Positions 2 to 59,781 of a stretch of DNA of 64,000 bases are shown here, one piece after another (the first letter of the stretch is position 1; the number at the start of each line of letters is the position of its first letter). The position numbers and the translations under genes were made by a program. The notes under the pieces were generated by a model. That model made no database searches, was not told the origin of the DNA, and worked only from the letters and a program-made list of their open reading frames with translations. Source of the DNA: a virus; the IMG/VR virus record IMGVR_UViG_3300030090_003995, positions 23,980 to 87,979 of that record; one strand, written 5' to 3'.

Positions 2-73
2 GCGAGACATAAATGTAAAACTTGTAAAAGAGGCGATTATTCAGCAAGATGTATGGCTTGTAGGGATTGGTAA
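2..73 (+). CDS. 3' end of a small Cys-rich (Zn-finger-like) protein, truncated by the window edge
   Basis: Manual translation ARHKCKTCKRGDYSARCMACRDW*, two CxxC pairs. Confidence 0.5.
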   Translation, partial: ARHKCKTCKRGDYSARCMACRDW

Positions 74-75
74 TT

Positions 76-243
76 ATGTTAGGAATTGTGTTAGCATCAT
101 TAATTATTTTGGTTGCCATTTTTTGGTATAATTTTTGGGTTTCATTAAATGACCTTGTTGATGGTGTTATTGAAGTTGAGGCTGAGGAAATAACAGAAGA
201 GTTATGGAAAAGTCATAAATTATTAAGGAGGATTCATAAATGA
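76..243 (+). CDS. small membrane protein (55 aa)
   Basis: Manual translation MLGIVLASLIILVAIFWYNFW...; stop overlaps the portal start (ATGA). Confidence 0.6.
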   Translation: MLGIVLASLIILVAIFWYNFWVSLNDLVDGVIEVEAEEITEELWKSHKLLRRIHK

Positions 244-7264: not shown

Positions 7265-7779
7265 ATACTGAAGAAATCTTGAAAAAGTTAAAAGAGATTC
7301 AAGTCGAGGCGATTAATAATCTACATAGTGATGATAAAGAAAGTCAACTTCAAGTCGCTGATAAAGAAAAATTACCGAATGAAGAACTTGTTGGTGGAGA
7401 AGAAGTTAAGATTAAAAGACCAAAGGCTGAAAATGTTAAAGTTCCTGATAGTTTAAGTCGAACAACACCAATGGCCGGCCCAACAAAATTCAATACGCCT
7501 GAAGAGGTTTATACAAGTGGTGAAAAGAAAAGCATTACAATTGAATCAATCCAAGCACAATTAGACGATTTAAAAAAGGATATGAATGCTGATAGATGGG
7601 GCGGAGAATTAGGTAATTTATTAATGGAGGCTGAATCATATTTAACTGAGCATGAGCAAAACAGGCGAGAAGGTAAAATTAAATATGACCAACAGGATAT
7701 TGATGAATTAAGGATTGAAATTAATAGAAATCCTCCTAGCCCTGGCAATATTAGAAATGTCTTAGCCCGATTTCCGTGA
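7261..7779 (+). CDS. hypothetical head-module protein
   Basis: ORF track; starts MNTEEILK (leader variant). Confidence 0.65.
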   Translation: MNTEEILKKLKEIQVEAINNLHSDDKESQLQVADKEKLPNEELVGGEEVKIKRPKAENVKVPDSLSRTTPMAGPTKFNTPEEVYTSGEKKSITIESIQAQLDDLKKDMNADRWGGELGNLLMEAESYLTEHEQNRREGKIKYDQQDIDELRIEINRNPPSPGNIRNVLARFP

Positions 7780-7784
7780 TTAGT

Positions 7785-10340
7785 ATGCCATTAAGCGGTC
7801 TTAGTTTTAGAAAAGAGAAAAACCCTCTTTCTAGGCGTATTCAACGCCTATTTGAACAGATTAGGGCCGACTATCTATCTGCTAAACAACAACCTAAAGA
7901 ATTCGCTAAAGATTGGGAAAAGGCAGTTGATAAACTAATAAACATTTATTCAGATATTGACGACCTTTCTTCTCAATTAAAAACTGTATTAGAAGAGAAA
8001 GATTTGAATTCTTCTGAAGCGAAGGATGCTACCTCTTCAACTGCCCAAAAAGTGTATAATGCTGTTAAAACTTTAAGATACGACAGTGACTACGTTAGAG
8101 ACCCCTTTGTTAAAAAGTTTGGTAAAGAGGTTCTTGAGAAATTATTAGAGAGTAAAGCCCATCTTGCTCTATTTATCCATTGGTGTCTTAGAAATGACCG
8201 AAATGCACTTCCTAGAGAGTTTTGGGAGGAATACCTGCCCGAAGGTGACAAAATAACTGACGGGTATGAGGGTCTTGACCTACATGAGAAGGCGATAGTA
8301 CCCTTCATTACTGAACATTATGGGGATGGAAAAAATAGTCAAGGTGTTAAAGCAAAAGTTAAGGGGTCTATGGCCTTATTTAAGGATTTATACACACGTT
8401 TCTATTCCAAATCCGAGTGGGCCGAGTTACTTGGCCTCGATATTGAGAAGTCTGAAAAAGATAAAAGCGATATTAACTTCATGGTTCCAAATAAACCAAT
8501 GTATAGGATTTTTGAGATTGATGATATTAAAGAGTTACGCGGTTTTACTGGAGATTGGGTTGTTCAAGAAAAATATGATGGTATGCGAATACAATTACAT
8601 AAAATTGATAATAAGGTGAAAATCTTCTCATTTAATGGTAATGATATTACAGATAAATGTCCAGAACAAGTTAAAATTCTCAAAGAAAAGAAGTTTGGGG
8701 AATGTATCTTAGATGGGGAGTTAATGTTATCAACGAAAGAAAAGCCTCTTCCCCGCGCTCAAGTTATTGCTCATGTATTTAAGAATAAAGAAGTTGATGG
8801 GGAGTTAAAGGTTCATGTTTTTGATATTATGCGCCATAATGACCGTGATTTAGCAGATTCTCCTTTACAAGATAGAATTAACATTTTATTTCAAAATTAT
8901 TCCATCCATTCGGATGAAAAATTAGCGTTCCCATCTAAGAAAGACACGCGAATTGCAGATAGTTTAGAAGATATTCAACGTTATGGTAAAGAAATTATGA
9001 AAATTCCAACATCTGAGGGTGTTGTCATTAAAGATTTAACTTCTACTTACATTAAAGGTGCGAAAAAGAATCCTAAGTGGATAAAATGGAAAAAATTTGT
9101 TGATTTGGACCTTATTGTTTTAGATAAGAAAACAACTAAGTCTAATCTAAATTCTTATACTCTTGGGGCTGGCCCATTAACTATGGAACAGGCTCGCAGT
9201 TTACAATCTGAGAAGATAAATGATAGATATTACTTAAATGTTGGGAAGGCTCTTAATACTAAGATAAATGTTGAAGTTGGTAAAATTGTTCGTGTGACTG
9301 TTGATGAAGTTAAGAAGAATAGAAAGGGCCAATATCGAGTATTTACTGCAAAAGTCATTGAGATTCCTGAAGTCGAACATCCTGATAAATTAATCACTTT
9401 AGAGTTGTTAGCCGGTGAAGGTGAAGTTAAAAATTATAAGGCTAAAGCATTAGAAAAGGGATATTCTATTACCGACGATATACATGGTGAAACAGAAGTT
9501 ATTCTTAAGCATGATTTAGACGGCTTTACAATTTATGGATTTAAAGATAATAACTTAATGTCAAAGAACGCGTTAGTAGATTTAGACCTTGTTAAAGAGC
9601 AAATTTCTGAATTAATAACAAAATATTCTAATCAAATGAAATCATTAATTATGACCATAATTAGAAGAAATGGTAATAAAATGACTTTAGAAGATATTAT
9701 AGAAGAAGGGTTAAGAGATAAGAATTTTAAGAAGATTTATGAAAAACACTATGGTAGTCCTAAAGAATTAGGAAAGGCTATGAAAGATGACAAAATGGAT
9801 GGTATAATTTTATTAGACAATATTCATTTTTCTACAGCAAATGAGAAGGAAGCCGAAAAAGTAGAAGTTGAGACTAACCCTGATGTTATTGTTAAGGAGT
9901 ATAAAACTCCTGAAAAGTATAGAAAAGGTAATTTTAAATTGTATCTTAGAAAAGATGAAAACTTAAATTTAACCTTTCAATTAGGGGAAGAAGTTATTGG
10001 TTGGGAAATTCAAATTGACTCAATTGATAATGTATTTGATTTATTTGGTAAAGCAGGTAAGTACCCTGCTAGGATTCAAGAAACAGTTTCAAAGGAAAAA
10101 CTAATTGATAAAGGTTCTGTTGAGTTAGGCGTACAAAGACATGGTTATCACGAATACATCTTAAAAGGCGAAAAGTTTGATACTAAACTTCATTTAAGAG
10201 TTGTCCCATTAAAGGACCAAAAACAATGGATAGCGTTTTCTAGTTTTGTAAAGGAACCTGTTGAACCCTCCACAGATGATGGTATATGGGATATTAGAGA
10301 GGATGAGAACAAGGATTTGTCCTTTGAAAGTCTTGAATAG
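7785..10340 (+). CDS. multidomain ATP-dependent DNA ligase in the head module (N-terminal helical domain + adenylation/OB domains + degenerate LigD phosphoesterase-like C-terminus)
   Basis: Motif I QEKYDGMR, III ILDGEL, IIIa VFDIM, IV EGVVIK, V WIKWK; C-terminal LIDKGSVE...YILKGEKF...WIAF. Confidence 0.85.
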   Translation: MPLSGLSFRKEKNPLSRRIQRLFEQIRADYLSAKQQPKEFAKDWEKAVDKLINIYSDIDDLSSQLKTVLEEKDLNSSEAKDATSSTAQKVYNAVKTLRYDSDYVRDPFVKKFGKEVLEKLLESKAHLALFIHWCLRNDRNALPREFWEEYLPEGDKITDGYEGLDLHEKAIVPFITEHYGDGKNSQGVKAKVKGSMALFKDLYTRFYSKSEWAELLGLDIEKSEKDKSDINFMVPNKPMYRIFEIDDIKELRGFTGDWVVQEKYDGMRIQLHKIDNKVKIFSFNGNDITDKCPEQVKILKEKKFGECILDGELMLSTKEKPLPRAQVIAHVFKNKEVDGELKVHVFDIMRHNDRDLADSPLQDRINILFQNYSIHSDEKLAFPSKKDTRIADSLEDIQRYGKEIMKIPTSEGVVIKDLTSTYIKGAKKNPKWIKWKKFVDLDLIVLDKKTTKSNLNSYTLGAGPLTMEQARSLQSEKINDRYYLNVGKALNTKINVEVGKIVRVTVDEVKKNRKGQYRVFTAKVIEIPEVEHPDKLITLELLAGEGEVKNYKAKALEKGYSITDDIHGETEVILKHDLDGFTIYGFKDNNLMSKNALVDLDLVKEQISELITKYSNQMKSLIMTIIRRNGNKMTLEDIIEEGLRDKNFKKIYEKHYGSPKELGKAMKDDKMDGIILLDNIHFSTANEKEAEKVEVETNPDVIVKEYKTPEKYRKGNFKLYLRKDENLNLTFQLGEEVIGWEIQIDSIDNVFDLFGKAGKYPARIQETVSKEKLIDKGSVELGVQRHGYHEYILKGEKFDTKLHLRVVPLKDQKQWIAFSSFVKEPVEPSTDDGIWDIREDENKDLSFESLE

Positions 10341-10376: not shown

Positions 10377-11714
10377 ATGGCGAGCGCAACGCTTCAACAA
10401 AGTGCGACAATTAGAACAAATAATCCTTCTGATTTTCAAATAATTAAATCTGATGATTTATACATTGGTGGATATGCTTCTATTGAATTAGTAGATAAGC
10501 AAAACGATTTAATTACATTAGAAGCATTAAATGATGCTGTTAAAAAATTCATGCAAGCACCAAGATACAGAAACGTTATGAATAATCATTCAAATGTTCA
10601 AGTTGGTGAAGTAGTCAAAGAATATCGAGATAAGACAGGAAAATTATGGAAAACTGATGTTGATGATGTTGGTTTTTTTGTTGTAATAAAATTAAGAGAT
10701 GATATTGAGAAGGCTAAAGAAGTTAGTCGGGACATTAGAAAAGGTACTCTTCGTTCTTTCAGCATTGGGGGTCAAGCACTCGAAAAGCGTAAACGAGAGA
10801 ATGATGAATTAGGAAAGTTTAATGAAATTAGTAAATTGGAATTGCATGAAGTAACTATTTGTGAAAAAGGCATTAATCCAGAAGCAAAATTTGATATTCT
10901 AAAACAAGACAGTGGTGATAACATGACCGAAGTTACAAAAGCGTTAGAAGAACTAAACTCTCTCTTAAAAGAAATTAGAGGAGAAAGTGTATCAAAAGCC
11001 CCTAATCCAAAATCGGAAGAGGGATTTGAAATGCAAGAATTACCGGAAGGTGAAGAAAAAATGACAAGTGAATATTTAGACACTGAAGAAGAAACTGAAG
11101 AATCACCTGAAATGCTAGAAATGGCAGAAGGTGAAGAAGAGGAAATGATGGAATTAGCCTCAAGCGAAGAAGATGACCCTGAAAAGGAATTAAAGAGCAA
11201 AACAAGCCATACCCATGAAACACAATTAGTGGATGAGGCTGGTCTAGAAGTTGTAGTGGGTGGACAACCTTCAACAAAACATGGACAGCGTAAAGATATG
11301 GGGATTCCTGCCGGAACTGAAACCAAAAAGTCCATTTATGGTGGAGATACACCAACACTCGATTTGAGTCCTGAGAATCTTGAAAAGGCTTATGCTGAAT
11401 TTAAGGCTGAGCAAATGGAAAAAATGGCTTACAATGATATTAAGTCGTCTTTCCAAGCACGATTCGATGCTGAAGTTGCAGCAAAAGCAGATTCAATCGA
11501 GAAGGCAAACTATGACCCACGAAGTGAGGTCAACGAACTTAAAAAGCAGTTTAGTGAGTTAATTGACACACTAAAGGGTGAGAAGGAAAATGTTATCCGA
11601 AAGCAACAAGAGGCTGTTGATAACCTAAACATTCCTTCAGGTGATGATTTGGCTAAGATGGATTGGAATGAAGTCCATTTGGCTATGGCTCGACTAGAGC
11701 GCAATTTCCGCTGA
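10377..11714 (+). CDS. HK97-family prohead protease fused to an acidic/coiled-coil scaffold
   Basis: IGGYAS..VDKQND, MNNHS (His), SFSIGG (Ser), LHEVTI...NPEA; immediately upstream of the capsid gene. Confidence 0.9.
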   Translation: MASATLQQSATIRTNNPSDFQIIKSDDLYIGGYASIELVDKQNDLITLEALNDAVKKFMQAPRYRNVMNNHSNVQVGEVVKEYRDKTGKLWKTDVDDVGFFVVIKLRDDIEKAKEVSRDIRKGTLRSFSIGGQALEKRKRENDELGKFNEISKLELHEVTICEKGINPEAKFDILKQDSGDNMTEVTKALEELNSLLKEIRGESVSKAPNPKSEEGFEMQELPEGEEKMTSEYLDTEEETEESPEMLEMAEGEEEEMMELASSEEDDPEKELKSKTSHTHETQLVDEAGLEVVVGGQPSTKHGQRKDMGIPAGTETKKSIYGGDTPTLDLSPENLEKAYAEFKAEQMEKMAYNDIKSSFQARFDAEVAAKADSIEKANYDPRSEVNELKKQFSELIDTLKGEKENVIRKQQEAVDNLNIPSGDDLAKMDWNEVHLAMARLERNFR

Positions 11715-11742: not shown

Positions 11743-13107
11743 ATGGTAAAATATATTAACACTATCGCTGACCTTGAACAAGCCACTTACGGTACGTTTG
11801 GTGGAAATAGCGACATTCTGAAAAGTGGTGGGTCTTTACTCGGACTTCACACAGCACACGATACAAACGCAACAAACGCATTTGTTGGAACTGCGGCTTC
11901 AAACCTCAGTAACTTGTATAACGTAATTTATGGACAGAAAGTTTGGTCAATGCTCAATCAAGAGATTAACCCACTTTCTATTCTTCCTAAGCGACCATAC
12001 ACTTCAAGCGGTTGGCGCGTATTAATTGACCGACCTGCTGGTGGAAGTGCTGCGGCTTTTGCGATTGGAACGCAAGATATTACTGCAACTCCAACTGCTG
12101 ATATGAGCGCACCTTCAGCCGATAGTATCGGTGGTGTGAAAGAAAACCACGCTTTGAATAGTGTTGGACTTTCTGAACTATCTCCAGAATATGCGACCTT
12201 ATTTATGAGTCCTAAGACTGTTGCGCATATGTTCGGTTATTCCGAAGTTGCAGCAGAAATGGCGAAAATTGATGATGGTATCGGTGATATTCGTAACATT
12301 GTTCGTGAAGATATGGGTAAATTCCACGCTGAGGTTCAGTCCAAAATGCTTGTAATGCCTCTTGAAAATTACGACCACTCAAGTTATGCAGATATTGAAT
12401 TAAACTACACTTCATTATTGAAGATTGTAGCAAGTAGTCAAGAAATGGAGGCTATGATTGATGCAGGTATGCACGGTTCAATGGGTGGTTCTTCATCAAC
12501 AGGCGGTTTAGTAGACCAAATGAGTTATTTGTATGGAAACAATTCTCGTGATTTGGTTGCAAATGCTTACAATGAATCATATATGGATGCTTATGTCAAT
12601 TATGGTAGTGGATATGCTGCTGGCGATGTTCGAGCATTAACTCTAACTTTGCTTAATACTACTTTGCAGAACCTCCGAACAAACGGTGGTACGCCAAAGT
12701 GTATCTTAACTGGATATGATACAATTCAAGCAATTGCTGATTTGTTACAGTCCCAAGAACGATTTATGGAGCGAAAAGAAATTGTTCCTACACATAATGG
12801 TGTTCGTGGTGTAAAGGGCCGAGAAGTCGGTTTCCGAGTAGCGACATATTTCGATATTCCGCTAATTCCATGTAAAGATATGGCAAGCACAGGTGAAGCA
12901 ACAGGTAAACTAAGCGATTTATTGTTCTTAGACACTGACCATCTTTGGATGGCTGTAATGAAACCAACTCAATACTTTGAGGATGGTATTAATTCTGGAA
13001 ACCCATTCGGTGTTGGCGCACTTGGAAACAAGGCCATGTTCCGAACAATGGGCGAAACTGGCTGTACTTTCTTTAAGGGACAAGGCAAGATTACTAACGT
13101 GAACTGA
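11743..13107 (+). CDS. major capsid protein (HK97 fold)
   Basis: Position after the protease; 454 aa; YGQKVWSMLNQE, IPLIP, LLFLDTD, QGKITN patterns of archaeal tailed-virus MCPs; AGGTGA RBS. Confidence 0.85.
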   Translation: MVKYINTIADLEQATYGTFGGNSDILKSGGSLLGLHTAHDTNATNAFVGTAASNLSNLYNVIYGQKVWSMLNQEINPLSILPKRPYTSSGWRVLIDRPAGGSAAAFAIGTQDITATPTADMSAPSADSIGGVKENHALNSVGLSELSPEYATLFMSPKTVAHMFGYSEVAAEMAKIDDGIGDIRNIVREDMGKFHAEVQSKMLVMPLENYDHSSYADIELNYTSLLKIVASSQEMEAMIDAGMHGSMGGSSSTGGLVDQMSYLYGNNSRDLVANAYNESYMDAYVNYGSGYAAGDVRALTLTLLNTTLQNLRTNGGTPKCILTGYDTIQAIADLLQSQERFMERKEIVPTHNGVRGVKGREVGFRVATYFDIPLIPCKDMASTGEATGKLSDLLFLDTDHLWMAVMKPTQYFEDGINSGNPFGVGALGNKAMFRTMGETGCTFFKGQGKITNVN

Positions 13108-13142
13108 GGCTTTTTAGTCATTAAAATAAAAGGTGATTAAAA

Positions 13143-13493
13143 ATGACAACACATACGGTAACTATTTTAACAGACCATAAAGGTGTAGCAAAGCCAAAAG
13201 TTAGTGGAGATGAATACGTCGTTGATGTTTGTGTAGATAGCACAAATATGCCATCAGGTGGAGTGACAGTTTCAGCATCAGAATGTGGATTAGCAACAAT
13301 TCACTGTGTAACAGTAACAGGGGCAGAGAACGGTAATCATTACAAAATTGTTCCAGAAATTGCGGCAGAAACAGGGGCTTATGCTTCATCATCATCATTT
13401 AAACTACATTATGCTGATGATTTAAGTAGCGGTTCAACAACAAGCGATACTAACGTAGGTTCAGTAAGGGTTCGTGTTTGGGGCTTAATTTGA
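13143..13493 (+). CDS. putative minor capsid/decoration protein
   Basis: Small beta-rich S/T/G/V protein directly after the MCP, same RBS context (aaaggtgattaaaaatg). Confidence 0.55.
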   Translation: MTTHTVTILTDHKGVAKPKVSGDEYVVDVCVDSTNMPSGGVTVSASECGLATIHCVTVTGAENGNHYKIVPEIAAETGAYASSSSFKLHYADDLSSGSTTSDTNVGSVRVRVWGLI

Positions 13494-13504
13494 GGTGATT
13501 TGGT

Positions 13505-13885
13505 TTGGCTAGACTATTGCTAAAAGACAGTAATCCAGAAAAATACGTGACAACACGTAAAACTGGAAGATTGAAAAGAGGTGAGTCTGCTGAATTATCT
13601 GCTGATAACATTGTAGCGTTCTTAGGAACGGAACATTGGGAAGTAACATTGAGTGAAGAAGAAGTTAATGGGTTAAGTGATAAGAAATTAGCATTAGCAC
13701 AAAGACTACTTAATTTGAAATCGAAAGAAGCGGTGTTAAACGCACTACTTCCTGAAAAGACAATCGTTCAAACGGTTACTTCAGCAGTTACTTCAACGGT
13801 AAAATCAGTAACGCCCACTTTGAATAAAAAGGTGACTAAGGAAGAAACTTCGGATGAGGCTATTTTAGCCGATGATTCCGAATGA
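13505..13885 (+). CDS. hypothetical protein (TTG start)
   Basis: GAGGTGAT RBS upstream of TTG. Confidence 0.65.
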   Translation: MARLLLKDSNPEKYVTTRKTGRLKRGESAELSADNIVAFLGTEHWEVTLSEEEVNGLSDKKLALAQRLLNLKSKEAVLNALLPEKTIVQTVTSAVTSTVKSVTPTLNKKVTKEETSDEAILADDSE

Positions 13886-14314: not shown

Positions 14315-14689
14315 ATGGCAGCAATTAATAAAGATACTAGACTAGTTATGACGATTTTATTCGTCGGTGCAGTAAGTGGAATGAATGTGTATTTCTATGC
14401 CAATTATGGCGCAGAATTACCTTGGACACCATTAAGTCATGCTGTGTTATTTTCTCTAATTACGATTGGGTTTGTAATGGGAATTAAAGCAGTATTTGAC
14501 TTAATTATGAACGACAGGATGGAATTATGGTTACTTGATAGAAAAATTAATATGTATTGGGAAAAGCGCAAGAGAGAAGAAACTCAACGAAATAAAATTG
14601 TTGATTCTATGCGCCAATATAATATGAACCCGTATATGCAAAATAACCAAGAAGTGCCAGCAGTTTTTCTTGAAGGTATTGAGCCTTGA
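14315..14689 (+). CDS. two-TM membrane protein (holin-like topology)
   Basis: Two hydrophobic helices followed by a charged coiled-coil tail. Confidence 0.65.
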   Translation: MAAINKDTRLVMTILFVGAVSGMNVYFYANYGAELPWTPLSHAVLFSLITIGFVMGIKAVFDLIMNDRMELWLLDRKINMYWEKRKREETQRNKIVDSMRQYNMNPYMQNNQEVPAVFLEGIEP

Positions 14690-14701
14690 TGGGGAATAGA
14701 T

Positions 14702-14914
14702 GTGCTTTTAGACTTATTTGGTTTAGATGAAACGTCTGTTGCTTATGATATGACAAGAGCGCATTCTGCTGATATATTATTTCTAAAAATGAGAGCAATT
14801 ATGTGGTGTATAACAACAGGTGTTGGGGCATTATTAATTGGTAATATATGTGGAGTATTTGGAATTAATTTCTTTGGTATGACTTGGGAATGGTTAACAG
14901 GGTTGTGGCATTAA
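14702..14914 (+). CDS. small membrane protein
   Basis: Hydrophobic Gly-rich segment followed by a Trp-rich amphipathic C-terminus. Confidence 0.6.
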   Translation: MLLDLFGLDETSVAYDMTRAHSADILFLKMRAIMWCITTGVGALLIGNICGVFGINFFGMTWEWLTGLWH

Positions 14915-15270
14915 TGAGTTGGCAAGATATTTTAAAGAATGATGAAAGAAACCCTAAATTTAGGGAAGGAGATGAATTGGAGGGCTATTGGATTAGTGAT
15001 TATATTAGTGATTATATTTTTGAGGGAAATAAATTACGCTCGGGTAATAGTTGGTGGGAAGAAGCCGCTGGTGAAGATTACTTGGATAAGTTATTAAAAG
15101 AATTCATAGAAAGTGGTGAAGAATATACTAAAGAAGCAGTAGATAAATGGTTGGAGAAAAATATAAGTCAAGAAGAATTTAATAGAATGGCTAAAGAAAT
15201 TAGAGATGATGATTACGGCCCAGACTATGAAGATTTTGGACCGGTTGAAGGATATAAAGATTATTATTAG
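14914..15270 (+). CDS. MSW-ILK leader protein (acidic)
   Basis: Starts MSWQDILK at ATG 14914 (TAATG overlap). Confidence 0.7.
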   Translation: MSWQDILKNDERNPKFREGDELEGYWISDYISDYIFEGNKLRSGNSWWEEAAGEDYLDKLLKEFIESGEEYTKEAVDKWLEKNISQEEFNRMAKEIRDDDYGPDYEDFGPVEGYKDYY

Positions 15271-15279
15271 GTGATTAAA

Positions 15280-15453
15280 ATGAGTTGGTTTGATACATTA
15301 AAAATGCACTGTGGAACTAAACAGAAAGTAGATGATGATTTTGAAAAAACAAAAGGAATTGCTAGACAGTTACGGCCTGATTTCAAACCTGATTTTAAAG
15401 AAAAAGATACCAAAAAGTACGGAATTAAACATCAAATACGTAGAGGTCAATAG
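15280..15453 (+). CDS. MSW-ILK leader protein (basic)
   Basis: Starts MSWFDTLK after taggtgattaaa. Confidence 0.65.
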   Translation: MSWFDTLKMHCGTKQKVDDDFEKTKGIARQLRPDFKPDFKEKDTKKYGIKHQIRRGQ

Positions 15454-15463
15454 GTGATTTCAT

Positions 15464-16132
15464 GTGTCAGTTGTTGCAGGTTTCGCAATTGTTTGTTTAG
15501 AAGCGGCAGGTTCATTTTGGAAAAAATTTCACGCAATTAATTTTGGAGTCTATGGTGCATCAAGAGTTGGAAAAACTACTTTACATAGACAATTACGAAC
15601 AAGAGGAGAAGTACCTGAAATCAAAAAAAGAACGGTCGGTTTAGAAAGAGCAACAAGAAAACTGGTTAAAATTGATAAAGATATGCACACAATCAAAGCC
15701 GCAGATATTGGAGGAGAATCAGCATATTGGAATCTTTGGAAAAAAGATATGAGAAAAAGAAAACCAAAACACGTTATATTCATGATAGACCATCGGCATT
15801 TAGAAAGTAATGTAAATATGGATAACCAATTAGCATGGCAGTATTTTGTTGATTTAATTTGTGACCCATATTGGAGAGATGGAAAGAAAAAGAAAAGAAA
15901 AAAGGATAAAGATTATCCAAAGTCTATTGGTATATGGGCAAATAAATACGATTTATGGGGGAAAGAAAATGGATTCAACGACATTTCAAAACACCCTATT
16001 TTTGAACCATTCGCGTATGGAATGCAACGACTTAATGAAATTGGAATACCTTGTTTCAAATATGTCGTTAGTGCAAAATCCGACCCTGAAATGGTATATC
16101 GCGGAGTAATGACAATGTGTGATGATTATTAA
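15464..16132 (+). CDS. Arf/Sar1-like small GTPase (Ras superfamily)
   Basis: G1 GASRVGKT, G2 RTVG, G3 DIGGE, G4 NKYD, G5 SAK; hydrophobic N-terminal extension. Confidence 0.85.
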   Translation: MSVVAGFAIVCLEAAGSFWKKFHAINFGVYGASRVGKTTLHRQLRTRGEVPEIKKRTVGLERATRKLVKIDKDMHTIKAADIGGESAYWNLWKKDMRKRKPKHVIFMIDHRHLESNVNMDNQLAWQYFVDLICDPYWRDGKKKKRKKDKDYPKSIGIWANKYDLWGKENGFNDISKHPIFEPFAYGMQRLNEIGIPCFKYVVSAKSDPEMVYRGVMTMCDDY

Positions 16133-16142
16133 GGTGATTAAA

Positions 16143-16406
16143 ATGAGTTGGCAAGATATATTAAAGGATGATGCAAAATGGGGCAGAATCCATCAACATC
16201 TAAAAGATAAATTAGAAGAATATAAACGTGACTACCCGTCTGCAAACACTTTAAGTTTTAATAAATTTGACGAAATTTATGAAGATATTATACAGGCGGC
16301 TATTGAGGATGAACAACGTCTACAAAAATTGGCTAAATATGCAGGATTTAGTCATTTTAATCCTCAACATCAAGGAAAAAGTGATGTGGTGGCGTTTTAC
16401 TATTAG
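16143..16406 (+). CDS. MSW-ILK leader protein
   Basis: Starts MSWQDILK after taaggtgattaaa. Confidence 0.7.
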   Translation: MSWQDILKDDAKWGRIHQHLKDKLEEYKRDYPSANTLSFNKFDEIYEDIIQAAIEDEQRLQKLAKYAGFSHFNPQHQGKSDVVAFYY

Positions 16407-16415
16407 GTGATTAAT

Positions 16416-16607
16416 ATGAGTTGGGATGATATATTAAAATTAGAAACTCCCCTACAAAAACCATTGAATGAAGCGTTAAGATTGTTAGAACCAACCACGC
16501 GCTATGAGATGGATGAAAGCAAGCAACAATACCAAGATTTAAGGAATGCTATTACTAAATTTTTAGAATGGGAACAAACGTTTCTACTGAGCCAAAGAAA
16601 TAGGTGA
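16416..16607 (+). CDS. MSW-ILK leader protein
   Basis: Starts MSWDDILK after taggtgattaat. Confidence 0.7.
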   Translation: MSWDDILKLETPLQKPLNEALRLLEPTTRYEMDESKQQYQDLRNAITKFLEWEQTFLLSQRNR

Positions 16608-16612
16608 TTAAA

Positions 16613-17170
16613 ATGGGTTGGGAAGATATTCTAAAATTAAGATACAAGCCACCGAAAAAATTTGGATACGAAAGTGATGCAGATTTCAAGAGAAGATTGG
16701 CAGCATACGACCGAAAATATCAAAGTGACAAAAGTAGAGGTGTTTTAGGAACAAGAGAAGAAATTGAAGCCGATGAGCAACGTAAGAAAGATAAATTTGC
16801 TCAAAATCAAAAAGAATTAGAGGAATCATCAATTGATTGGAATAAAGCACTAAACACTATGGTTTTGCTAGAAAAAGAAGTAAAACGTAGATTTGAACCG
16901 AGAGGTAATGACCCCGGAGAAAGGATGTTACAAAATGTATTTATAAATGCGGCTAATAAACCAATGCGAGAATTAGCAGATATTTACCTCGCTCAACCTA
17001 AAGGTTCAGAAGGCGGAATAAAAGAATGGAATAGAGCAAGAAGGTATCTTGCTCAAGTTTTACTTGACCCTCGATATGTTGGTCTGTTAAATAATTTAAG
17101 ATTAGCGCGTGATGATGAGTCATTAGAAAGGTTTCTTGAAAATAATGGGTTTGGAGATGGTTCTGAATGA
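16613..17170 (+). CDS. MSW-ILK leader protein
   Basis: Starts MGWEDILK after taggtgattaaa. Confidence 0.7.
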   Translation: MGWEDILKLRYKPPKKFGYESDADFKRRLAAYDRKYQSDKSRGVLGTREEIEADEQRKKDKFAQNQKELEESSIDWNKALNTMVLLEKEVKRRFEPRGNDPGERMLQNVFINAANKPMRELADIYLAQPKGSEGGIKEWNRARRYLAQVLLDPRYVGLLNNLRLARDDESLERFLENNGFGDGSE

Positions 17171-17823
17171 GTGTTAGTTATTCACCTTCAAATTTAATTG
17201 GGATGGGCCAAGGTCAAAATTCAACAATGGGATTCACACCATTACAAATTGCTAGAATGCCCGGCCCTATTTCACCATACGAATATAAAAATATCAAAGA
17301 AAAAAAACAATTAAAGGAGATTCGTAAAGTACTCAGTCCCGAGAAAAAGAAATTTTTATTTTTAAAATACGGTTTTAAATTCAATGTTAAACATAGATGT
17401 GTTGTTTGTGGTTCATATCACGAATGGGAAGCATCAGATACAATGAGGCCACCAATTCCATTATCAGAGGTTCATAAAGGTAGACCATTAAAAGGTACAT
17501 TATGTCCTAAACACGCGTCAATGTACATTCAAATGGAGACTTTAGAACAACAAATTCTCGCAAACAATCACGGTTTAGAATTTAAAAAATACATTCCAAA
17601 GGCGAAAGTCCCTAAAATGATGCAAAGGGGTCCATTAACAGATTTATCGCCAGCAGACGTTACAACTCTAGTATCAGCAGGTTGGGTTGTTGAACCACCA
17701 AAAGGAACAAAAGAAACACCACATATGCAATATACTAGAATTATGTTGGAAGTTCAAGGGAAACTTTCACAGATACAAAAAATTATTCCTTTAATTGAGG
17801 TTGAAGAAAATGGTGAGAAGTAG
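17167..17823 (+). CDS. Zn-finger-containing hypothetical protein
   Basis: CVVC...CPKH ligands; basic, with a C-terminal helix. Confidence 0.65.
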   Translation: MSVSYSPSNLIGMGQGQNSTMGFTPLQIARMPGPISPYEYKNIKEKKQLKEIRKVLSPEKKKFLFLKYGFKFNVKHRCVVCGSYHEWEASDTMRPPIPLSEVHKGRPLKGTLCPKHASMYIQMETLEQQILANNHGLEFKKYIPKAKVPKMMQRGPLTDLSPADVTTLVSAGWVVEPPKGTKETPHMQYTRIMLEVQGKLSQIQKIIPLIEVEENGEK

Positions 17824-18463
17824 TACATTAAACTCGGCACTGGCGGATTCTCAGAATCAAAGTTTTAAGAGCATGAACAATCTCTTAACTTTGCAAGAGA
17901 ACCATGTAGAAGAATTTTTCCAATATCACGGGCCTGAATTTATGAATGCCCTTGAAAAGTTAATGGAAGATGTTGTTCAAAGAGTAGTATCAAATATGTT
18001 AGCAAGTTTGGAATTTGTTTTAAACCCAGCATCAAACCATATTACATTACAAGAAAAATGTCTTTCAGAATATCAAAAAATTACTCAAGAAAACATTGAC
18101 TTAGATATTCAAACTATTCTTGCTACGGCAGTAAATAGTGAAGTTATTCATCAACGTAAGATGGCTAAACAACAATATCTTGAAAGTCAAGGATTTAGCC
18201 CGCAAACAACTGGACAACAATATACAGTTGCTCAAGGTGTTGGAATGGGCGCAACATCCGGTGGAATGGCCGGAGGTGTAATGGGTATAAATCAAGGAAT
18301 GCAGAGTGGTTATCCAATTCCGCCTAATGGTTACGACCAAATGAATAATCCTTATTGGATTGACCCACAAACAGGCCAAATGTCATATACCCCGCCTAGT
18401 GGTGGAATTGGCTTAGGCCAAAAAATGGCTAAAGCAGCAGCATGGGCAAAGTGGCTAGTGTGA
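17810..18463 (+). CDS. coiled-coil protein with G/M/Q/P low-complexity tail and amphipathic C-terminus
   Basis: Helical N-terminal half; GMGATSGGMAGGVMG; ends KMAKAAAWAKWLV. Confidence 0.65.
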   Translation: MVRSSTLNSALADSQNQSFKSMNNLLTLQENHVEEFFQYHGPEFMNALEKLMEDVVQRVVSNMLASLEFVLNPASNHITLQEKCLSEYQKITQENIDLDIQTILATAVNSEVIHQRKMAKQQYLESQGFSPQTTGQQYTVAQGVGMGATSGGMAGGVMGINQGMQSGYPIPPNGYDQMNNPYWIDPQTGQMSYTPPSGGIGLGQKMAKAAAWAKWLV

Positions 18464-18477: not shown

Positions 18478-20247
18478 ATGGCTCTCAAATATTCTTGGTT
18501 TAAACTTGACAAAGATGAAAAGTTTGAAAGCCATAATTTTGAGCAACAAGAGATTACTGAACCCAAATTAAAATATATTTTTGGTTTGTACTTGTTTGAT
18601 TTAAAAAATAAAGCGGAGTTAGATATTGTTCCTGCTAGATTAAAAGATATTAAATCTAGAACTATTGGCGACTATACAGATATTGACGTTAATAATCCGC
18701 CTGATTCTGTTTGGTCTGATGACCATACCACAGAATTGTTGAGCAAAATTGATAATGCTAGGCGAAGCCTTCTTCAAATGGATTTAGATGATGCGATTAA
18801 AAATTATACCGGTGCAAAACATAAAGTAAATGTTGGTGGAAAAGAAGAAGAAATATTAGAAGCGTTATATTTAGATGTAGATGAAAAAAGTTGGGATGTT
18901 GAGGATGTTGTCAACGAGGAATTACATGAAATGTTTTATAGACCAGTTTTTACTACTAAAGATGAAAAATTAAAGAAAAAGCAATTGATGTTATTAAATC
19001 CTATAGAGGTTGAAAATAAACAAGATTATAAGAGATTAGTTAAATTAGATTTAGATGATTGGCAGAAGATAATTGATTCTAATATTAATATGCCTAAATT
19101 TATAAATATTGTTAAAGGTAAAAAGGGAAATAAAATAACCCTCACATTAAATATAGATTTCTCAAGTTCAGATGCACAAATTAATGCTGTTAAAAAAATC
19201 TTTCCCGGCCAAAAAGTAAAATTTATGCCTTCTAGAGAAGAACTTAAATCTACTTCAACTGTTGCACAAATTAGAATGCCAGCGCAAAATGCTGAAGGGG
19301 CTAAAGGAGAGTATAAACGTGAATTGGCAAGTCCTGACGAAATTAGAGATTACAATTATCACGCCTTGGAAGATGCTGTAGATTTAAATGAAGATGAAGA
19401 AGGGTTAAAAAATGTATTGATGGCACTAAATGAATTTTCAAAAGAATCACAGATACAAGAGTCTCTACCGCCCCTAAAAACAACAAGAGTCAAAACTACT
19501 TACGGAGATATATTAGTCCAAGGTGTTCCATTTGATGCTGAAGATTACATAGATGGTTTAGAAGTTGAAATTTCTGATAAAGATAGTGGTGAAATACTCG
19601 AAACAGTTTTTGGTACTTTAGAAGAATTGAAGAAAGACCCTAGATTTGAGAAAGTTTTGGCTAAATATGAAACTTCTAAAAGAAAAGCAGATAGATATAT
19701 TGATAAACTAAAAAAGGATGCTAAAAAAATAAGAGATAATTTAGCAAAAACTAAGAAAAAAAGACAAGAGATTAACTTCACTGGCACTTCAAATGTAGCA
19801 CTAAAAGAAATGTTTCAGAGCGAAAGTCAAGAGTCTTTAAAGGATATAACATTAAATTGGATAAGAAATATAAATTCTGATGGTAGTTTGTATAGATTAT
19901 TTCAACAAATACTTTTACCAATGAGTGTAACTTCTCAAGGTGATTACAAAATAGTTATTCAATTGAATAAGAAAGGTTTAAATTATTCCGGACAAGTTAA
20001 AAGGTGGCAATATATTCAAACTGCAGAATTAGATACTAAATTTTTAAGTATGCCTTCAGGCCGCCAATCAAGGGTTAAATTAGATATTGGTAGAAAAACC
20101 GATAAAGGAAAAACTGAAAGTATGCGGGGTGATTATCGTACAGATATGGGTTTAGGGTATAATCCAGTAAGACAGTTTTTAACTAAATTTGTAACAAATA
20201 GGCTATCAAAACTAGATAAAGCAATCGAATCTTTAAGGAGGAATTAA
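18478..20247 (+). CDS. hypothetical charged protein (589 aa)
   Basis: ORF track; GAGGGGG RBS; no recognised motif. Confidence 0.7.
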   Translation: MALKYSWFKLDKDEKFESHNFEQQEITEPKLKYIFGLYLFDLKNKAELDIVPARLKDIKSRTIGDYTDIDVNNPPDSVWSDDHTTELLSKIDNARRSLLQMDLDDAIKNYTGAKHKVNVGGKEEEILEALYLDVDEKSWDVEDVVNEELHEMFYRPVFTTKDEKLKKKQLMLLNPIEVENKQDYKRLVKLDLDDWQKIIDSNINMPKFINIVKGKKGNKITLTLNIDFSSSDAQINAVKKIFPGQKVKFMPSREELKSTSTVAQIRMPAQNAEGAKGEYKRELASPDEIRDYNYHALEDAVDLNEDEEGLKNVLMALNEFSKESQIQESLPPLKTTRVKTTYGDILVQGVPFDAEDYIDGLEVEISDKDSGEILETVFGTLEELKKDPRFEKVLAKYETSKRKADRYIDKLKKDAKKIRDNLAKTKKKRQEINFTGTSNVALKEMFQSESQESLKDITLNWIRNINSDGSLYRLFQQILLPMSVTSQGDYKIVIQLNKKGLNYSGQVKRWQYIQTAELDTKFLSMPSGRQSRVKLDIGRKTDKGKTESMRGDYRTDMGLGYNPVRQFLTKFVTNRLSKLDKAIESLRRN

Positions 20248-22850: not shown

Positions 22851-24389
22851 ATGGCAATTAATAGCGAAGTATTTCTGGGTAGTGGCGCAAGTTTAATGTT
22901 TGTGCCAGAATTAGATTTTTATGTGAAACCAAGCGCAAATCCGGCAACAGATGATACATCAGTTGCTTTCCATAGTGATATAACTTGGGCTAAATTAGTA
23001 ACTAATTTATACACTGGTTGTACATTAGAACTGCGTAATGCTTCAAATAATTTTATTTCCTCACATAAAGTAACTAGTAATACATATAATACTCTACATT
23101 TTACACCAAAAGTTACTGCAACAGGAACATTAACTAATTATTACTATATTTTAAAAGGTTTTGCTGCTCCATTACCCGCACCTGATGGTTCAGGACACGC
23201 AAGACTATGTGCAGACAATTGGTTAGGTTTAGTAGAAAGTGCTACTTTTCCTAACATTGATATTGAAATGAGACAAATGAATAATCAATTAGGTGGGACT
23301 AGAAATTTTAGTCATCAATTTAAAGGGATTGAAACTACTTCAGGAGGAAATCTTGGACTTGTTCTTACTCACCCATGTTGGCTATATTATTTCTTAGGCA
23401 AAGCCGGGACTGTAACACCTCATACTGATTTAATTACTGCTAACACAGGTCTTAATTCTGATGTTAGGGCATCATCTACAAATGGTTTATTTATTGATAA
23501 TGGGGCGCATTTAGCACAAGGTCCGATTTTCTACCGTTCTATTGGTGATAAAGTAGTTCCACCACTTATGAAAGGGGCAGATGCTTATGGAAGTATGGAT
23601 TTAGTGGCTTTACCAACATTGGCTAATAAATTAATTACATACGCTTTTACAGAAGCAAATGGTGTAAGTTTACCTTCCTTTTCACTTGAACAAAATTTAA
23701 GTAAATTGGAAGATAGTGATGCGTATGTTGATTCTACTGAAACTAATGAATCTCATAACTTTGTTCGAATCGCAAGAGGAAATAGAGTTAATACATTGAC
23801 ATTAACTGCTAATGAAAATGAAGAAGTTAAAATGACTTTAGATTTAAATAGTAGCACTATTGATACACCAACAACTGATTATACATATCAAGGGAGAAGA
23901 GGTGTAACTGCTGATTCTAGTTTATTTAACAATAATGCTAGCCAAGATTCATATAATGAACCATATTTCTTTACTGACGGTGTTATTTCTATTTATGGTC
24001 AAACCTTTTTAAAGATTCAATCTTTCTCATTAACAATGAATAATAACTTAATGGATAAGAGATATGTTGGTATGGCAAATAAAAAAGTCAAAGATTCTAT
24101 CCCAGCACAAAGAACATATGAAATATCATTCAGTGCTTTAGTTACAGATTCAAAATTATTTAATGAATTAAGACAAGCCGGTGAAAATACTAGTAATGAT
24201 ATGACATTGACCTTTACTAAGGCAAATAATACTAATGAAACATTTAATATTACTTTCCAAAATTATATCACAAATTCTGCAAATTGGACTATTCCGGAAG
24301 ATAGAGGCCCAGTTACTGTTGATATGACAGTAAATCCTAGAACGATGAGTAGTTGCACAGCAACAACAAATTGGGTTTTACAGGGGTGA
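22851..24389 (+). CDS. major tail tube protein (siphovirus type) with insertions
   Basis: PSFSLE, GNRVNTLTLT, SFSLTMNNNL motifs; upstream of chaperones and tape measure; strong RBS. Confidence 0.75.
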   Translation: MAINSEVFLGSGASLMFVPELDFYVKPSANPATDDTSVAFHSDITWAKLVTNLYTGCTLELRNASNNFISSHKVTSNTYNTLHFTPKVTATGTLTNYYYILKGFAAPLPAPDGSGHARLCADNWLGLVESATFPNIDIEMRQMNNQLGGTRNFSHQFKGIETTSGGNLGLVLTHPCWLYYFLGKAGTVTPHTDLITANTGLNSDVRASSTNGLFIDNGAHLAQGPIFYRSIGDKVVPPLMKGADAYGSMDLVALPTLANKLITYAFTEANGVSLPSFSLEQNLSKLEDSDAYVDSTETNESHNFVRIARGNRVNTLTLTANENEEVKMTLDLNSSTIDTPTTDYTYQGRRGVTADSSLFNNNASQDSYNEPYFFTDGVISIYGQTFLKIQSFSLTMNNNLMDKRYVGMANKKVKDSIPAQRTYEISFSALVTDSKLFNELRQAGENTSNDMTLTFTKANNTNETFNITFQNYITNSANWTIPEDRGPVTVDMTVNPRTMSSCTATTNWVLQG

Positions 24390-39142: not shown

Positions 39143-39279
39143 GTCTTATTAGACCACAAAGCAAAACATTCCCTGCATTCCCAGACTTTAATCGAATCTG
39201 CCGACCCAACATATACCCCAATAATTCTCTTGGGTATTGTCTGCATATTGCATACAGGACACTTTTGCTTTAAACTCAT
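39103..39279 (-). CDS. small Zn-ribbon protein (58 aa)
   Basis: Manual translation MSLKQKCPVC...VWECRECFALWS... Confidence 0.6.
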   Translation of the reverse strand: MSLKQKCPVCNMQTIPKRIIGVYVGSADSIKVWECRECFALWSNKTKIKVGGISVPSA

Positions 39280-39431
39280 TATTTTTCACCGCGTTTAATT
39301 TTTTGCATGATGTTTTCCATATATTCTTCAATTGTATCTTCAGTGATGCTTGTTTGACCAAACGCCGCAAAAAATAAAATCGAAATGATACATAGGAAAA
39401 CTAACCATGCGAATACTTCACCTGTTTCCAT
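39279..39431 (-). CDS. small membrane protein (50 aa)
   Basis: Manual translation METGEVFAWLVFLCIISILFFAAFG...; GGTGAT RBS. Confidence 0.6.
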   Translation of the reverse strand: METGEVFAWLVFLCIISILFFAAFGQTSITEDTIEEYMENIMQKIKRGEK

Positions 39432-58773: not shown

Positions 58774-59228
58774 TCTTCTTCACCTCCGACCCAATCAGGA
58801 ATTTCTACTCTTTGATAAAATACAGTTTGGGGTTCTCCCTTTCGCCATTCCATAGATTGATTGTCACCTAGAACAATTGCATAATTCATAATAGGTTCCC
58901 ACGTTTTAATTGTGTTCCAGTCTGTTCCTGAAAAATATGCTTGACCAAACGGATGAGTATGAATCCAACATTCGATAGGTAAAGTCATTCCCGTAGGTGG
59001 TTCTTTAAACCAAACAAATCCGGGGTCTCCGGCAGAAATATAAATATTCATCTTACCATCAATAACCACTTGCACTTCGCGCCCAATATCAAACGCGGTT
59101 AAACTCATTTCCCAAATAGTATCTAAGAAATTCTCGTCTACAAATTCAAAATTTCCATCAGCCCAAGCATTCTTAATCTGCTCTTCCCAATCTTCAATCT
59201 TCACTTCAATACTTTCACTTGACAACAT
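58770..59228 (-). CDS. JAB/MPN+ (JAMM) metalloprotease
   Basis: GREV...WIHTHPFGQAYFSGTD = E...HxH(x7)SxxD. Confidence 0.9.
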   Translation of the reverse strand: MLSSESIEVKIEDWEEQIKNAWADGNFEFVDENFLDTIWEMSLTAFDIGREVQVVIDGKMNIYISAGDPGFVWFKEPPTGMTLPIECWIHTHPFGQAYFSGTDWNTIKTWEPIMNYAIVLGDNQSMEWRKGEPQTVFYQRVEIPDWVGGEEE

Positions 59229-59434
59229 TAAATAATCCCTCCAATATTGTTGGCAACATAAATTCCAACCAATACTACTATTACACCCACAAGGAAATAC
59301 TTCCCATTGGATTCTGATTCTTGCTTTGTTTTATATTGTTGCCAATCGTCATGGCTAATAAAACGTACTTTACCATTTTCATCCTTTACATAAGGTCTTC
59401 CATTCTTCGCAATAAACACTCTTTTATCATTCAT
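59228..59434 (-). CDS. small C-terminally anchored membrane protein
   Basis: YFLVGVIVVLVGIYVA transmembrane segment. Confidence 0.6.
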   Translation of the reverse strand: MNDKRVFIAKNGRPYVKDENGKVRFISHDDWQQYKTKQESESNGKYFLVGVIVVLVGIYVANNIGGII

Positions 59435-59779: not shown

Positions 59780-59781
59780 AC

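Follow-up and report, generated by a model that had tools for sequence, protein, structure and literature searches.

Introduction

Small GTPases of the Arf family are defined by an amphipathic N-terminal helix that is freed to the membrane upon GTP binding (bioRxiv 10.1101/2024.02.28.582541). The ArfR proteins have been reported to be nearly exclusive to Asgard archaea, whereas the GTPase described here is encoded by a virus of Poseidoniales. In the ArvABC system of Haloferax volcanii, the small GTPase ArvA, also with an N-terminal helix, drives vesicle formation jointly with ArvC, a Zn-ribbon protein and proposed GAP, the output being membrane deformation (PMC10927574). Virus-encoded Ras-superfamily GTPases are found as well in giant eukaryotic viruses, as mimivirus Rab (PDB 5XC5) and the Rab, Ras and Ran proteins of Klosneuviruses and pithoviruses, among others. 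Those genes were captured recently from the Rab, Ras or Ran of their hosts, whereas the magrovirus GTPase forms a deep-branching family of its own within a fixed membrane cassette. Phage holin lysis cassettes and PVAP are GTPase-free, and we know of no phage or archaeal-virus egress system that needs a GTPase. A 2024 review describes the players in the egress of tailed archaeal viruses as "completely uncharacterized" (PMC10791045).

The stretch of DNA analyzed here (64,000 nucleotides, hereafter the window) belongs to the 88-kb genome of a magrovirus, a tailed virus of Poseidoniales. Its nearest named relative is Poseidoniales virus YSH_150918, which bears out the archaeal host initially proposed. 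Marine Group II are abundant ocean archaea, and magroviruses, whose hosts are uncultured, are among the most abundant viruses of the surface ocean. The GTPase cassette of the window, of which no mention was found in the searchable literature, is an undescribed candidate for magrovirus action on the host membrane, perhaps for exit through it.

Organization of the Cassette

The five genes listed in the initial annotation were all found on the + strand, at the coordinates given there and with the architectures described, apart from corrections to two helices given below. Gene 1 (TM2, 14315–14689) encodes a 124-aa protein with two predicted TM segments (hydrophobic at residues 10–28 and 39–66 by hydropathy) and a charged C-terminal tail. 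It has the small size, one to three TM segments and charged C-terminus of holins and is holin-like by architecture only; it matched no holin or lysin family and belongs to no Pfam or PHROG family. Gene 2 (TM1, 14702–14914) encodes 70 aa with one predicted TM segment (hydrophobic at 32–61) and a conserved RAHSAD-type motif at the N-terminus. Gene 3 (15464–16132) encodes the 222-aa GTPase, a divergent Arf-like protein with motifs G1–G5 and a hydrophobic N-terminal helix, and gene 4 (ZnF, 17167–17823) a 218-aa CCCH protein, putatively zinc-binding. Gene 5 (CC) ends at 18463 and starts at 17795 or 17810, the ATG at 17810 matching an ESM Atlas record; its product has predicted long helices, a Q/G/M-rich linker and a conserved C-terminal end.

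As initially claimed, the cassette is interrupted by inserted MSW-leader genes, five in number and all on the + strand. By motif scan, two lie between TM1 and the GTPase, at 14914–15270 (MSWQDILK..., outside the core cassette) and 15280–15453 (MSWFDTLK...), and three between the GTPase and gene 4, at 16143–16406, 16416–16607 and 16613–17170 (MGWEDILK..., 185 aa). Inserts at the cassette junctions are missing in most relatives: the TM1/GTPase gap is longer than 150 nt in 2 of 79, with no insert at this junction in the other 77, and the GTPase/ZnF gap does so in 6 of 71.

Both in the window's group and in the second group described below, the TM proteins, the Cys/His protein and the Q/G-rich protein have no family in PHROGs, NCBIfam or Pfam, and the cassette proteins did not match any holin, lysin, pyramid-forming egress protein or PHROG family. 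The membrane proteins of the cassette resemble those of holin cassettes and PVAP in their small size, their one or two TM segments, their charged tails and their place in or beside the late operon, and host lysis is assigned to no other gene of this virus; the differences are the missing sequence match, the missing adjacent wall-degrading enzyme and the presence of a GTPase. The earlier statement that the window has no recognizable endolysin holds for the larger ORFs, which are those that the check covered. Other small TM ORFs are present in the genome, so the cassette is not its sole membrane-protein locus.

Conservation in Related Viruses

Relatives were chosen in two ways, by the GTPase (n = 80) and by the capsid gene with enough downstream sequence. 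All relatives chosen by the GTPase (80/80) have the order g117-TM2-TM1-GTPase-ZnF-CC, most gaps falling between −14 and +60 nt; gene 1 directly follows the g117 homologue in 78 of the 80, and gene 2 begins 0–15 nt past gene 1 in all relatives. Selection by capsid gave the same result, with TM2 present in 44/44 loci, TM1 in 38/38, the GTPase in 37/37, ZnF in 31/31 and CC in 26/26.

In a second magrovirus group, with a GTPase about 30% identical, the block reads TM-TM-GTPase-ZnF-Q/G-rich-2TM; its internal gaps have medians of 0–9 nt, and about 100 nt separate it from its flanks. Instead of adjoining the capsid gene, this block is found upstream of a homologue of G13102 and the large terminase. 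The same block is present in a third lineage (an 81-kb contig of 46% GC), and in both the cassette has 6–7 genes and other neighbours. Between groups, hhalign detected the three soluble proteins with E values of 3e-44, 5e-13 and 8e-7; the second corresponds to gene 4 against the gene after the GTPase (97.9%), whose third-lineage counterpart is also homologous, and the third to the helical domain of gene 5 against the Q/G-rich protein (91.6%). For the TM proteins, homology between groups was undetectable by hhalign (probability ≤5%), so that what is conserved of them is position and architecture only.

The five genes therefore co-occur in both directions of selection and across three lineages, and they are inherited as a genuine unit. 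A lack of co-occurrence among relatives, named initially as an outcome that would refute the proposal, was not what the comparison gave. This unit moves between genomic settings. Its initial placement between head and neck genes is right for the window's group only, and since the cassette of the second group lies upstream of packaging genes, it is not a head/neck feature.

Motifs and Predicted Membrane Features of the GTPase

The complete set of G1–G5 motifs reported at first was confirmed, and the motifs are invariant in 23–26 relatives. The P-loop (G1) is G31ASRVGKT38, with G31, G36 and K37 invariant among 32 extended-family sequences. T57 is the switch I Thr (G2), and G3, G4 and G5 are D81IGGE, N160KYD and S203AK, with T57, D81, G84, N160, K161, D163 and S203-A204-K205 invariant in the group; D81, G84, N160 and K161 are also invariant across the extended family, all of which retains G1–G5. 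W92, at +7 after E85 of G3, is nearly invariant in this family, and IFMID109 follows beta-4, with D109 invariant. The position of the catalytic Gln is occupied by Glu in most of the window's group and by Gln in a minority. Judged from the aligned motifs, the GTPase retains all residues required for GTP binding and hydrolysis.

The claimed hydrophobic N-terminal helix was also found, with hydrophobic residues 1–19 and a helix predicted at 2–22. Over the first 18 residues, the Eisenberg <H> is 0.6–0.75 and the hydrophobic moment is low; thus, the helix is hydrophobic and TM-like rather than clearly amphipathic, and, like that of SRbeta, may serve as a TM anchor. The hydrophobic N-terminus is kept across the extended family. 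In addition, the polybasic stretch KKKRKKDKDYP (residues 142–152) belongs to a 20-residue insert before beta-5.

Family Placement of the GTPase

The AF2 model (pLDDT 73, with 63–69 for the N-terminal helix; pTM 0.73) has a G-domain fold, matching 240 PDB representatives at Z of at least 8. The top small GTPases reach Z 12.9, where SRbeta, Arf6 and Arl2 are tied (rmsd 2.8–4.8 over 155–176 residues), and Ras, Rab and Rho score only about 2 Z units lower (Ras/Rab around 11, mimivirus Rab 11.0). Foldseek gave G-alpha Ras domains at E 8e-8. Among the best 50 BFVD matches of the model, the only viral look-alikes were GTPases of giant viruses, with none from a phage or archaeal virus.

The extended-family profile matched the whole of Arl3 (E 1e-12) and Arf1 (E about 1e-12), then Arl1, Arl2, Arl8, ArfR 8OUN and G-alpha, and EhRabX3 was the sole Ras/Rab protein in its top rows; the group-only profile matched Ras and Arl8 equally (E 1e-3). 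In Pfam, all matches of the window GTPase are sub-threshold (Roc, Ras, MMR_HSR1, Arf), with 16.5 bits for Arf (PF00025) against a cut-off of 22.3. Its distant relatives P0157, P0187, P0199 and P0206 pass this cut-off at 25–37 bits.

The closest relatives are thus the Arf family (Arf1, Arf6, Arl1/2/3/8, Sar1, SRbeta and the Asgard ArfR of PDB 8OUN/8OUM; bioRxiv 10.1101/2024.02.28.582541), with G-alpha next. Shared features are DxGG at G3, Trp at +7 after Gln/Glu, hhFMID after beta-4, NKxD, SAK and a helix ahead of the P-loop. The viral GTPase differs in having mostly Glu for Gln, no Gly2, the polybasic 20-residue insert and a TM-like helix where that of Arf is amphipathic. The Arf/Sar1-like assignment made initially is therefore supported by motif, profile and predicted fold, though the protein is no typical Arf: it falls short of the Pfam cut-off and its group mostly has Glu in place of the catalytic Gln. 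By sequence and model, the protein is Arf/Sar/SRbeta/Galpha-like, a divergent relative of the Arf family and not a member of it.

The family is small and almost wholly metagenomic or viral, with 94 representatives among 1.84 billion proteins. Homologues with 58–95% identity were found in 170 viral contigs, and the conservation of the GTPase equals that of the capsid protein. By tblastn, there was no match in 50,697 phage records, a set that may omit near relatives of the window. The distant relative P0129 was unmatched among viral contigs and found in metagenome contigs, and a homology search with P0187 returned P0187 itself only.

The Cys/His and Q/G-rich Proteins

In the gene 4 product, always encoded 3′ of the GTPase, C78, C81, C113, H116, R30 and R94 are invariant in the alignment of relatives, as is an RPPIPL motif, and there is a basic segment, KKQLKEIRKVL. 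The CCCH protein matched no Pfam family at E up to 1 (DUF2072 included) and no PHROG or NCBIfam family, and the third-lineage homologue has lost its Cys/His ligands. A predicted complex of the Cys/His protein with the GTPase, GTP and Mg scored 0.00 in two runs without controls, which is evidence neither way.

The gene 5 protein consists of a helical N-terminal domain, a variable Q/G/M-rich linker and a conserved GYPxPPxGYD..NPYWIDPxTGQxxYTPP segment, and it ends in a nearly invariant AAWAKWL(A/V). This end had been described as amphipathic; it is weakly so, with muH of 0.2–0.37 for KMAKAAAWAKWLV. The model has a pLDDT of 56, and its best PDB match (Z 5.9) is not meaningful. ESCRT-III/PspA-like and WW-like would be our guess for the conserved parts; the WW family of Pfam gave no match at E up to 1. 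ESM Atlas gave no usable result for either the Cys/His or the Q/G-rich protein.

The likeness to ArvABC, by description only, consists in a zinc-type protein encoded beside a small GTPase whose N-terminal helix is hydrophobic. Several components differ: ArvC is a DUF2072 Zn-ribbon, whereas the Cys/His protein of the virus hit nothing in Pfam; ArvB (OapB, PF09846) had no match in the 88-kb viral genome, with the control genomes of Haloferax and Methanosarcina positive; and genes for TM proteins, of which the viral cassette has two or three, are missing from the Arv operon, as is a Q/G-rich protein.

Proposed Function

Our leading reading, to which we give somewhat less than an even chance, is a module that is switched by GTP and acts late in infection at the host cytoplasmic membrane, with egress as its most likely output. 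Late expression is suggested by the shared strand and near-zero spacing with head genes, and the link to the membrane by the two or three TM proteins and the hydropathy of the GTPase N-terminus. The GTPase would be held at or brought to the membrane by its hydrophobic helix and polybasic loop and would switch between GTP and GDP, probably governed by the adjacent Cys/His protein as a candidate GAP or effector. This cycle would set the time and place of assembly of the small membrane proteins, two or three in number, and of the Q/G-rich helical protein, and the most likely result would be a breach or remodelling of the membrane that frees the progeny, as a GTP-timed egress device in a host without a murein wall. 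A late GTP-switched membrane system had been proposed initially; the co-inherited unit, the Arf-like GTPase and the archaeal host on which it was built all stand, and we infer the function itself. A site just upstream of packaging genes is common for phage lysis cassettes, for example in lambda, and the cassette of the second group sits likewise. Co-inheritance and the precedent of ArvA with ArvC also favour this reading. Against it count the absence of holin, lysin, PVAP or PHROG matches, the undetectable homology of the TM proteins between groups, the Cys/His ligands lost in the third lineage, the other small TM ORFs of the genome and the GTPase-free nature of known egress systems. The more specific proposal of an egress machine of tailed archaeal viruses, with the Arf-like GTPase as a nucleotide-gated timer upon whose signal the small membrane proteins and the Q/G-rich protein open or vesiculate the wall-less host envelope, is possible though rather doubtful.

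The position within the structural operon equally fits a role in morphogenesis or in the virion. The proteins might be assembly factors tethering head/neck assembly or packaging to the membrane, or minor virion pilot or ejection proteins with membrane-opening TM segments, since the cassette shares the strand of the structural operon, between head and neck in one group and beside packaging genes in the other. Tailed-phage ejection proteins likewise bear TM segments and are encoded in structural modules, and the cargo-like MSW-leader genes insert preferentially at cassette junctions. We nevertheless consider this role unlikely, because related haloviruses that share the capsid type have seven small genes from capsid to tail tube and no cassette, its neighbours differ between groups while head and neck genes stay, its proteins resemble no structural PHROG and, to our knowledge, a Ras-superfamily GTPase occurs in no tailed-virus virion or assembly pathway. 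About equally improbable is a non-lytic manipulation of the host membrane, in which an ArvA- or Arf-like switch would produce vesicles, membrane proliferation, a membrane-bound assembly site or a block of superinfection or cell division. Genes for host takeover and exclusion tend to be early ones, whereas the cassette is embedded in late genes, and tailed viruses need no envelope. The Arf-like fold and motifs, the hydrophobic helix with the polybasic loop and the precedent of ArvA/ArvC, a GTPase and a zinc protein driving vesiculation in Euryarchaeota (PMC10927574), speak for such a role; the absence of OapB/ArvB from the genome and of any Pfam match, DUF2072 included, for the zinc protein speaks against it.

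A soluble regulatory GTPase for translation, signalling or nucleotide sensing, with its N-terminus packed on the protein or a partner and its membrane neighbours incidental, would agree with the sub-threshold family matches, the moderate model confidence of the N-terminal helix and a membrane claim based on hydropathy alone. TM genes are, however, its fixed neighbours in three lineages, even where identity is about 30% and the surroundings have changed, and the hydrophobic N-terminus is kept across the extended family, which makes this explanation quite improbable.

Conclusions

The conserved, self-contained cassette of 5–7 genes around a GTP switch is a concrete object for the question of how tailed archaeal viruses leave the cell. 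If the egress reading is true, it would represent a lysis principle without a bacteriophage counterpart; if the function is assembly or entry, a GTPase in tailed-virus morphogenesis would be equally unprecedented, as we know of no such case. An Arf-like membrane GTPase is now placed in viruses of non-Asgard archaea, which bears on the origin and spread of Arf-type switches.

Cassette genes and their setting in the window

The IMG/VR virus record from which the window was taken (bases 23980–87979) is 87,979 bp long, with a completeness rating of 93%. Head, tail and replication-related genes were located as portal (240–1883), an ATP-dependent ligase inside the head module (7776–10340), prohead protease (10377–11714), HK97-type capsid protein (11743–13107) and tail tube (22851–24389). 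Among 50,697 phage records, the capsid protein matched only tailed viruses of haloarchaea and methanogens. The small GTPase shares 64% identity with a hypothetical protein from Poseidoniales virus YSH_150918, which is the type virus of Aoguangviridae (PMC10768690). From these relatives, the source virus was classified as a magrovirus, one of the tailed viruses that are assigned to archaea of Marine Group II. A second ligase within the head module is a published trait of magroviruses (PMC5434244).

The five ORFs proposed as a membrane module in the initial annotation were all found: TM2 (14315–14689), with two hydrophobic, predicted transmembrane (TM) segments and a charged tail; TM1 (14702–14914), with one hydrophobic segment; the GTPase (15464–16132), with G1–G5 motifs; ZnF (17167–17823), a Cys/His protein in which C78, C81, C113, H116, R30 and R94 are invariant in the alignment of relatives; and CC (17810–18463), with long predicted helices followed by a variable Q/G/M-rich linker. 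Outside the cassette, four further small ORFs each have one strong TM segment; they lie at 67–243 (+), directly preceding the portal gene, and at 39279–39431, 59228–59434 and 59648–59785 (all −), and are other possible membrane actors.

The alignment of CC revealed that a GYPxPPxGYD..NPYWIDPxTGQxxYTPP segment is conserved and that the C-terminal AAWAKWL is nearly invariant. The tail had been described as amphipathic; according to its hydrophobic moment it is so to a weak degree only. Residues ~165–195, which carry the conserved segment, resemble a short WW-type hairpin; the WW model of Pfam did not match this segment. An RPPIPL motif is invariant in ZnF, the protein encoded before CC, and these sequence features hint that the two proteins touch each other in a WW/PP-type manner. 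A 589-aa gene (18478–20247, +) separates the cassette from the neck genes, and the slot that it fills ranges from 1.0 to 2.8 kb in relatives. This gene, judged to be fast-evolving or replaceable, has no family match and detectable similarity only in the closest relative, L003 (32%).

Five + strand genes between the cassette members (starting at 14914, 15280, 16143, 16416 and 16613) begin with MSW/MGW-x-[DE]-x-L-K. They occupy the TM1/GTPase and GTPase/ZnF junctions, the only ones with inserts in relatives' cassettes (2 of 79 and 6 of 71, respectively). The leader, M-[SG]-W-x-[DE]-x-L-K, is shared with a sixth + strand gene at 1888. In four of the six (15280, 16143, 16416 and 16613), V-I-[KN] stands in frame directly 5' of the start, preceded in three of these four by a stop.

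Co-inheritance of the cassette

Close relatives of the GTPase (58–95% identity) are encoded on 170 viral contigs, from which 80 loci were taken. Every sufficiently long locus has the order capsid – g116 – (g126) – g117 – TM2 – TM1 – GTPase – ZnF – CC – variable gene – g364 – g193 – tube (g numbers denote neighbour gene families), with spacing inside the cassette of mostly −14 to +60 nt. A further 80 loci were selected by capsid protein to remove the bias of picking by GTPase. Where enough downstream sequence was available, TM2 was present in 44/44, TM1 in 38/38, GTPase in 37/37, ZnF in 31/31 and CC in 26/26.

When 1.84 billion representatives were searched with a GTPase profile, only 94 relatives had E up to 0.001. 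One branch of these, with a GTPase that is ~30% identical, makes up a second magrovirus group; at least 80 further viral contigs, the longest of 118 kb, carry it. Its block invariably consists of a 143–201 aa protein with 1–2 TM, a 73–99 aa protein with ~1 TM, the GTPase, a 292–357 aa ZnF homologue, a 190–235 aa protein (41–57% Q/G/M/N/P) and a 77–94 aa protein with 2 TM, with internal gaps of 0–9 nt (median) and flanking gaps of ~100 nt. No capsid gene occurs within 9 kb upstream, while downstream there is a homologue of window ORF 13102–13764 and, 7 kb further, the large terminase (Terminase_6C). A third lineage, an 81-kb contig of 46% GC (L174), has 2TM – 1TM – (acidic insert) – GTPase – ZnF-like – Q/P-rich – 2TM, with neighbours that differ from those in both other groups.

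Profile–profile comparison of the first and second groups established homology of the soluble proteins (GTPase, E 3e-44; ZnF, E 5e-13; CC helical domain, E 8e-7), while the TM proteins, with hhalign probability ≤5%, correspond to each other by position and architecture alone. Co-occurrence of the five genes across relatives, on which the initial annotation had staked its proposal, was upheld in GTPase-selected, capsid-selected and distant loci. The cassette's location between head and neck genes is correct for the window and close relatives and does not extend to the second group and third lineage, where the neighbours are others; by its gene order, the cassette does not count as a head or neck feature. 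Since order and composition are kept in three lineages despite changed surroundings, the cassette is an old unit, inherited together.

Within the second group, one subgroup has a 48-aa ORF of ribbon-helix-helix-like sequence (L085:8136–8282, +; …VVMPDDLFAKVEAARGRESKSSFV…) directly upstream of the cassette, in the same place in L083–L092, and this ORF could be a dedicated cassette regulator. In L093, L094, L096 and L097, the region ~20–100 nt ahead of the first cassette gene contains a GC-rich hairpin, clearest in the first two, and then, just 5' of the cassette, an AT-rich stretch with a common GTGATAC motif. Such an arrangement would fit a terminator followed by a promoter of the cassette's own, and in that group the five to seven genes may thus form an independent operon. 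The third-lineage ZnF homologue (L174:8802–9533, +; BLAST E 1e-27 to the second group) apparently lacks the CxxC...CxxH ligands, and therefore zinc binding may not be essential to the ZnF family. The same contig carries large ORFs upstream (L174:1822–5117, +) and an ORF with a serine-recombinase-like start (L174:13984–14721, −; MKAAIYVRVSTEEQ…).

Motifs, family and fold of the GTPase

The complete set of G1–G5 motifs reported initially was confirmed: G1 (G31ASRVGKT), switch I T57, G3 (D81IGGE), G4 (N160KYD) and G5 (S203AK) are invariant in 23–26 relatives, as is W92, at +7 after the Glu of G3. Judged by sequence, the enzyme is catalytically complete, and its conservation level is about that of the capsid protein. 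The predicted N-terminal helix is plainly hydrophobic, as described initially, with a mean Eisenberg hydrophobicity of 0.6–0.75; its hydrophobic moment is low, and in appearance it is closer to an anchor of the SRbeta type than to the amphipathic helix of classical Arf proteins.

Taken alone, the window GTPase reached no curated family threshold (Pfam scores in bits: Roc, 22.1; Ras, 19.1; MMR_HSR1, 18.5; Arf, 16.5, with an Arf cut-off of 22.3), and the close-group profile matched Ras and Arl8 in the PDB equally weakly (E ~1e-3). Throughout the extended family, DxGG, Trp at +7 from the Gln/Glu position and Asp after beta-4 (IFMID) are kept. Distant members recruited by the viral profile exceed the Pfam Arf threshold over their full length (25–37 bits). 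The profile including them retrieved Arl3 along its full length (E 1e-12), as well as Arf1, Arl1/2/8, Asgard ArfR (8OUN) and G-alpha; among the best 60 matches listed, EhRabX3 was the sole protein of Rab type, and no Ras protein appeared.

The AF2 model (pLDDT 73) is closest to SRbeta, Arf6 and Arl2 (Z 12.9), followed by Gs/Gi (12.4–12.6) and Sar1 (11.9); Ras, Rab and Rho, at Z ~11, fall below the Arf-type folds by a small margin. The top Foldseek matches were G-alpha Ras domains, with a long N-terminal helix. In a comparison with predicted viral structures, the similar proteins were all copies of Rab, Ras or Ran from giant viruses of eukaryotes, and none of the best 50 matches was a phage or archaeal-virus protein.

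Motifs, extended-family profile and predicted fold point to the Arf/Sar/SRbeta/G-alpha branch, and to that extent the Arf/Sar1-like assignment stands, qualified by the score below the Pfam Arf cut-off. Unlike Arf, the viral protein has Glu instead of the catalytic Gln in most of the first group, lacks Gly2, has a TM-like N-terminus and carries a conserved polybasic insert, KKKRKKDKDYP, before beta-5. Given these departures, and because the defining Arf property is a helix released via the interswitch toggle (bioRxiv 10.1101/2024.02.28.582541), the viral GTPase was labeled divergent Arf-like and not an Arf-family member.

Possible role of the cassette

Genes for two or three small TM proteins and for two soluble partners consistently adjoin that of the GTPase, and the cassette lies on the strand of the late genes with spacing near zero. 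It would act at the host membrane late in infection, governed by a GTP switch. Poseidoniales have no murein and hence no endolysin substrate. The means by which tailed archaeal viruses lyse the host cell are uncharacterized according to PMC10791045. For these two reasons egress was ranked first among the readings, as a tentative assignment somewhat short of even probability. A part in morphogenesis or entry is unlikely, as is, to the same degree, non-lytic manipulation of the host membrane by the cassette, and a soluble regulatory role is quite improbable.

The best precedent is the Haloferax ArvA/ArvB/ArvC operon, in which vesicles form through the action of ArvA, a small GTPase that has an N-terminal helix, and for which the Zn-ribbon protein ArvC has been proposed as GAP (PMC10927574). 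The viral Cys/His protein is a candidate GAP or effector of the GTPase. Membership of the cassette in ArvABC was ruled out, since ArvB is missing from the viral genome and the viral Cys/His protein matches no Pfam family.

The word "GTPase" is absent from the main text of the magrovirus papers PMC5434244, PMC10160649, PMC11706807, PMC10768690 and PMC8651126, and holins are treated in PMC11706807 only for another order. Some members of the GTPase family were auto-annotated by JGI as "GTPase SAR1 family protein". Overall, the module and its Arf-likeness hold at the sequence level, and the membrane-machine interpretation is partly supported, with the function a candidate one. The Arf-like cassette is an undescribed version of a known type of switch in an unexpected place, and is worth bench work.
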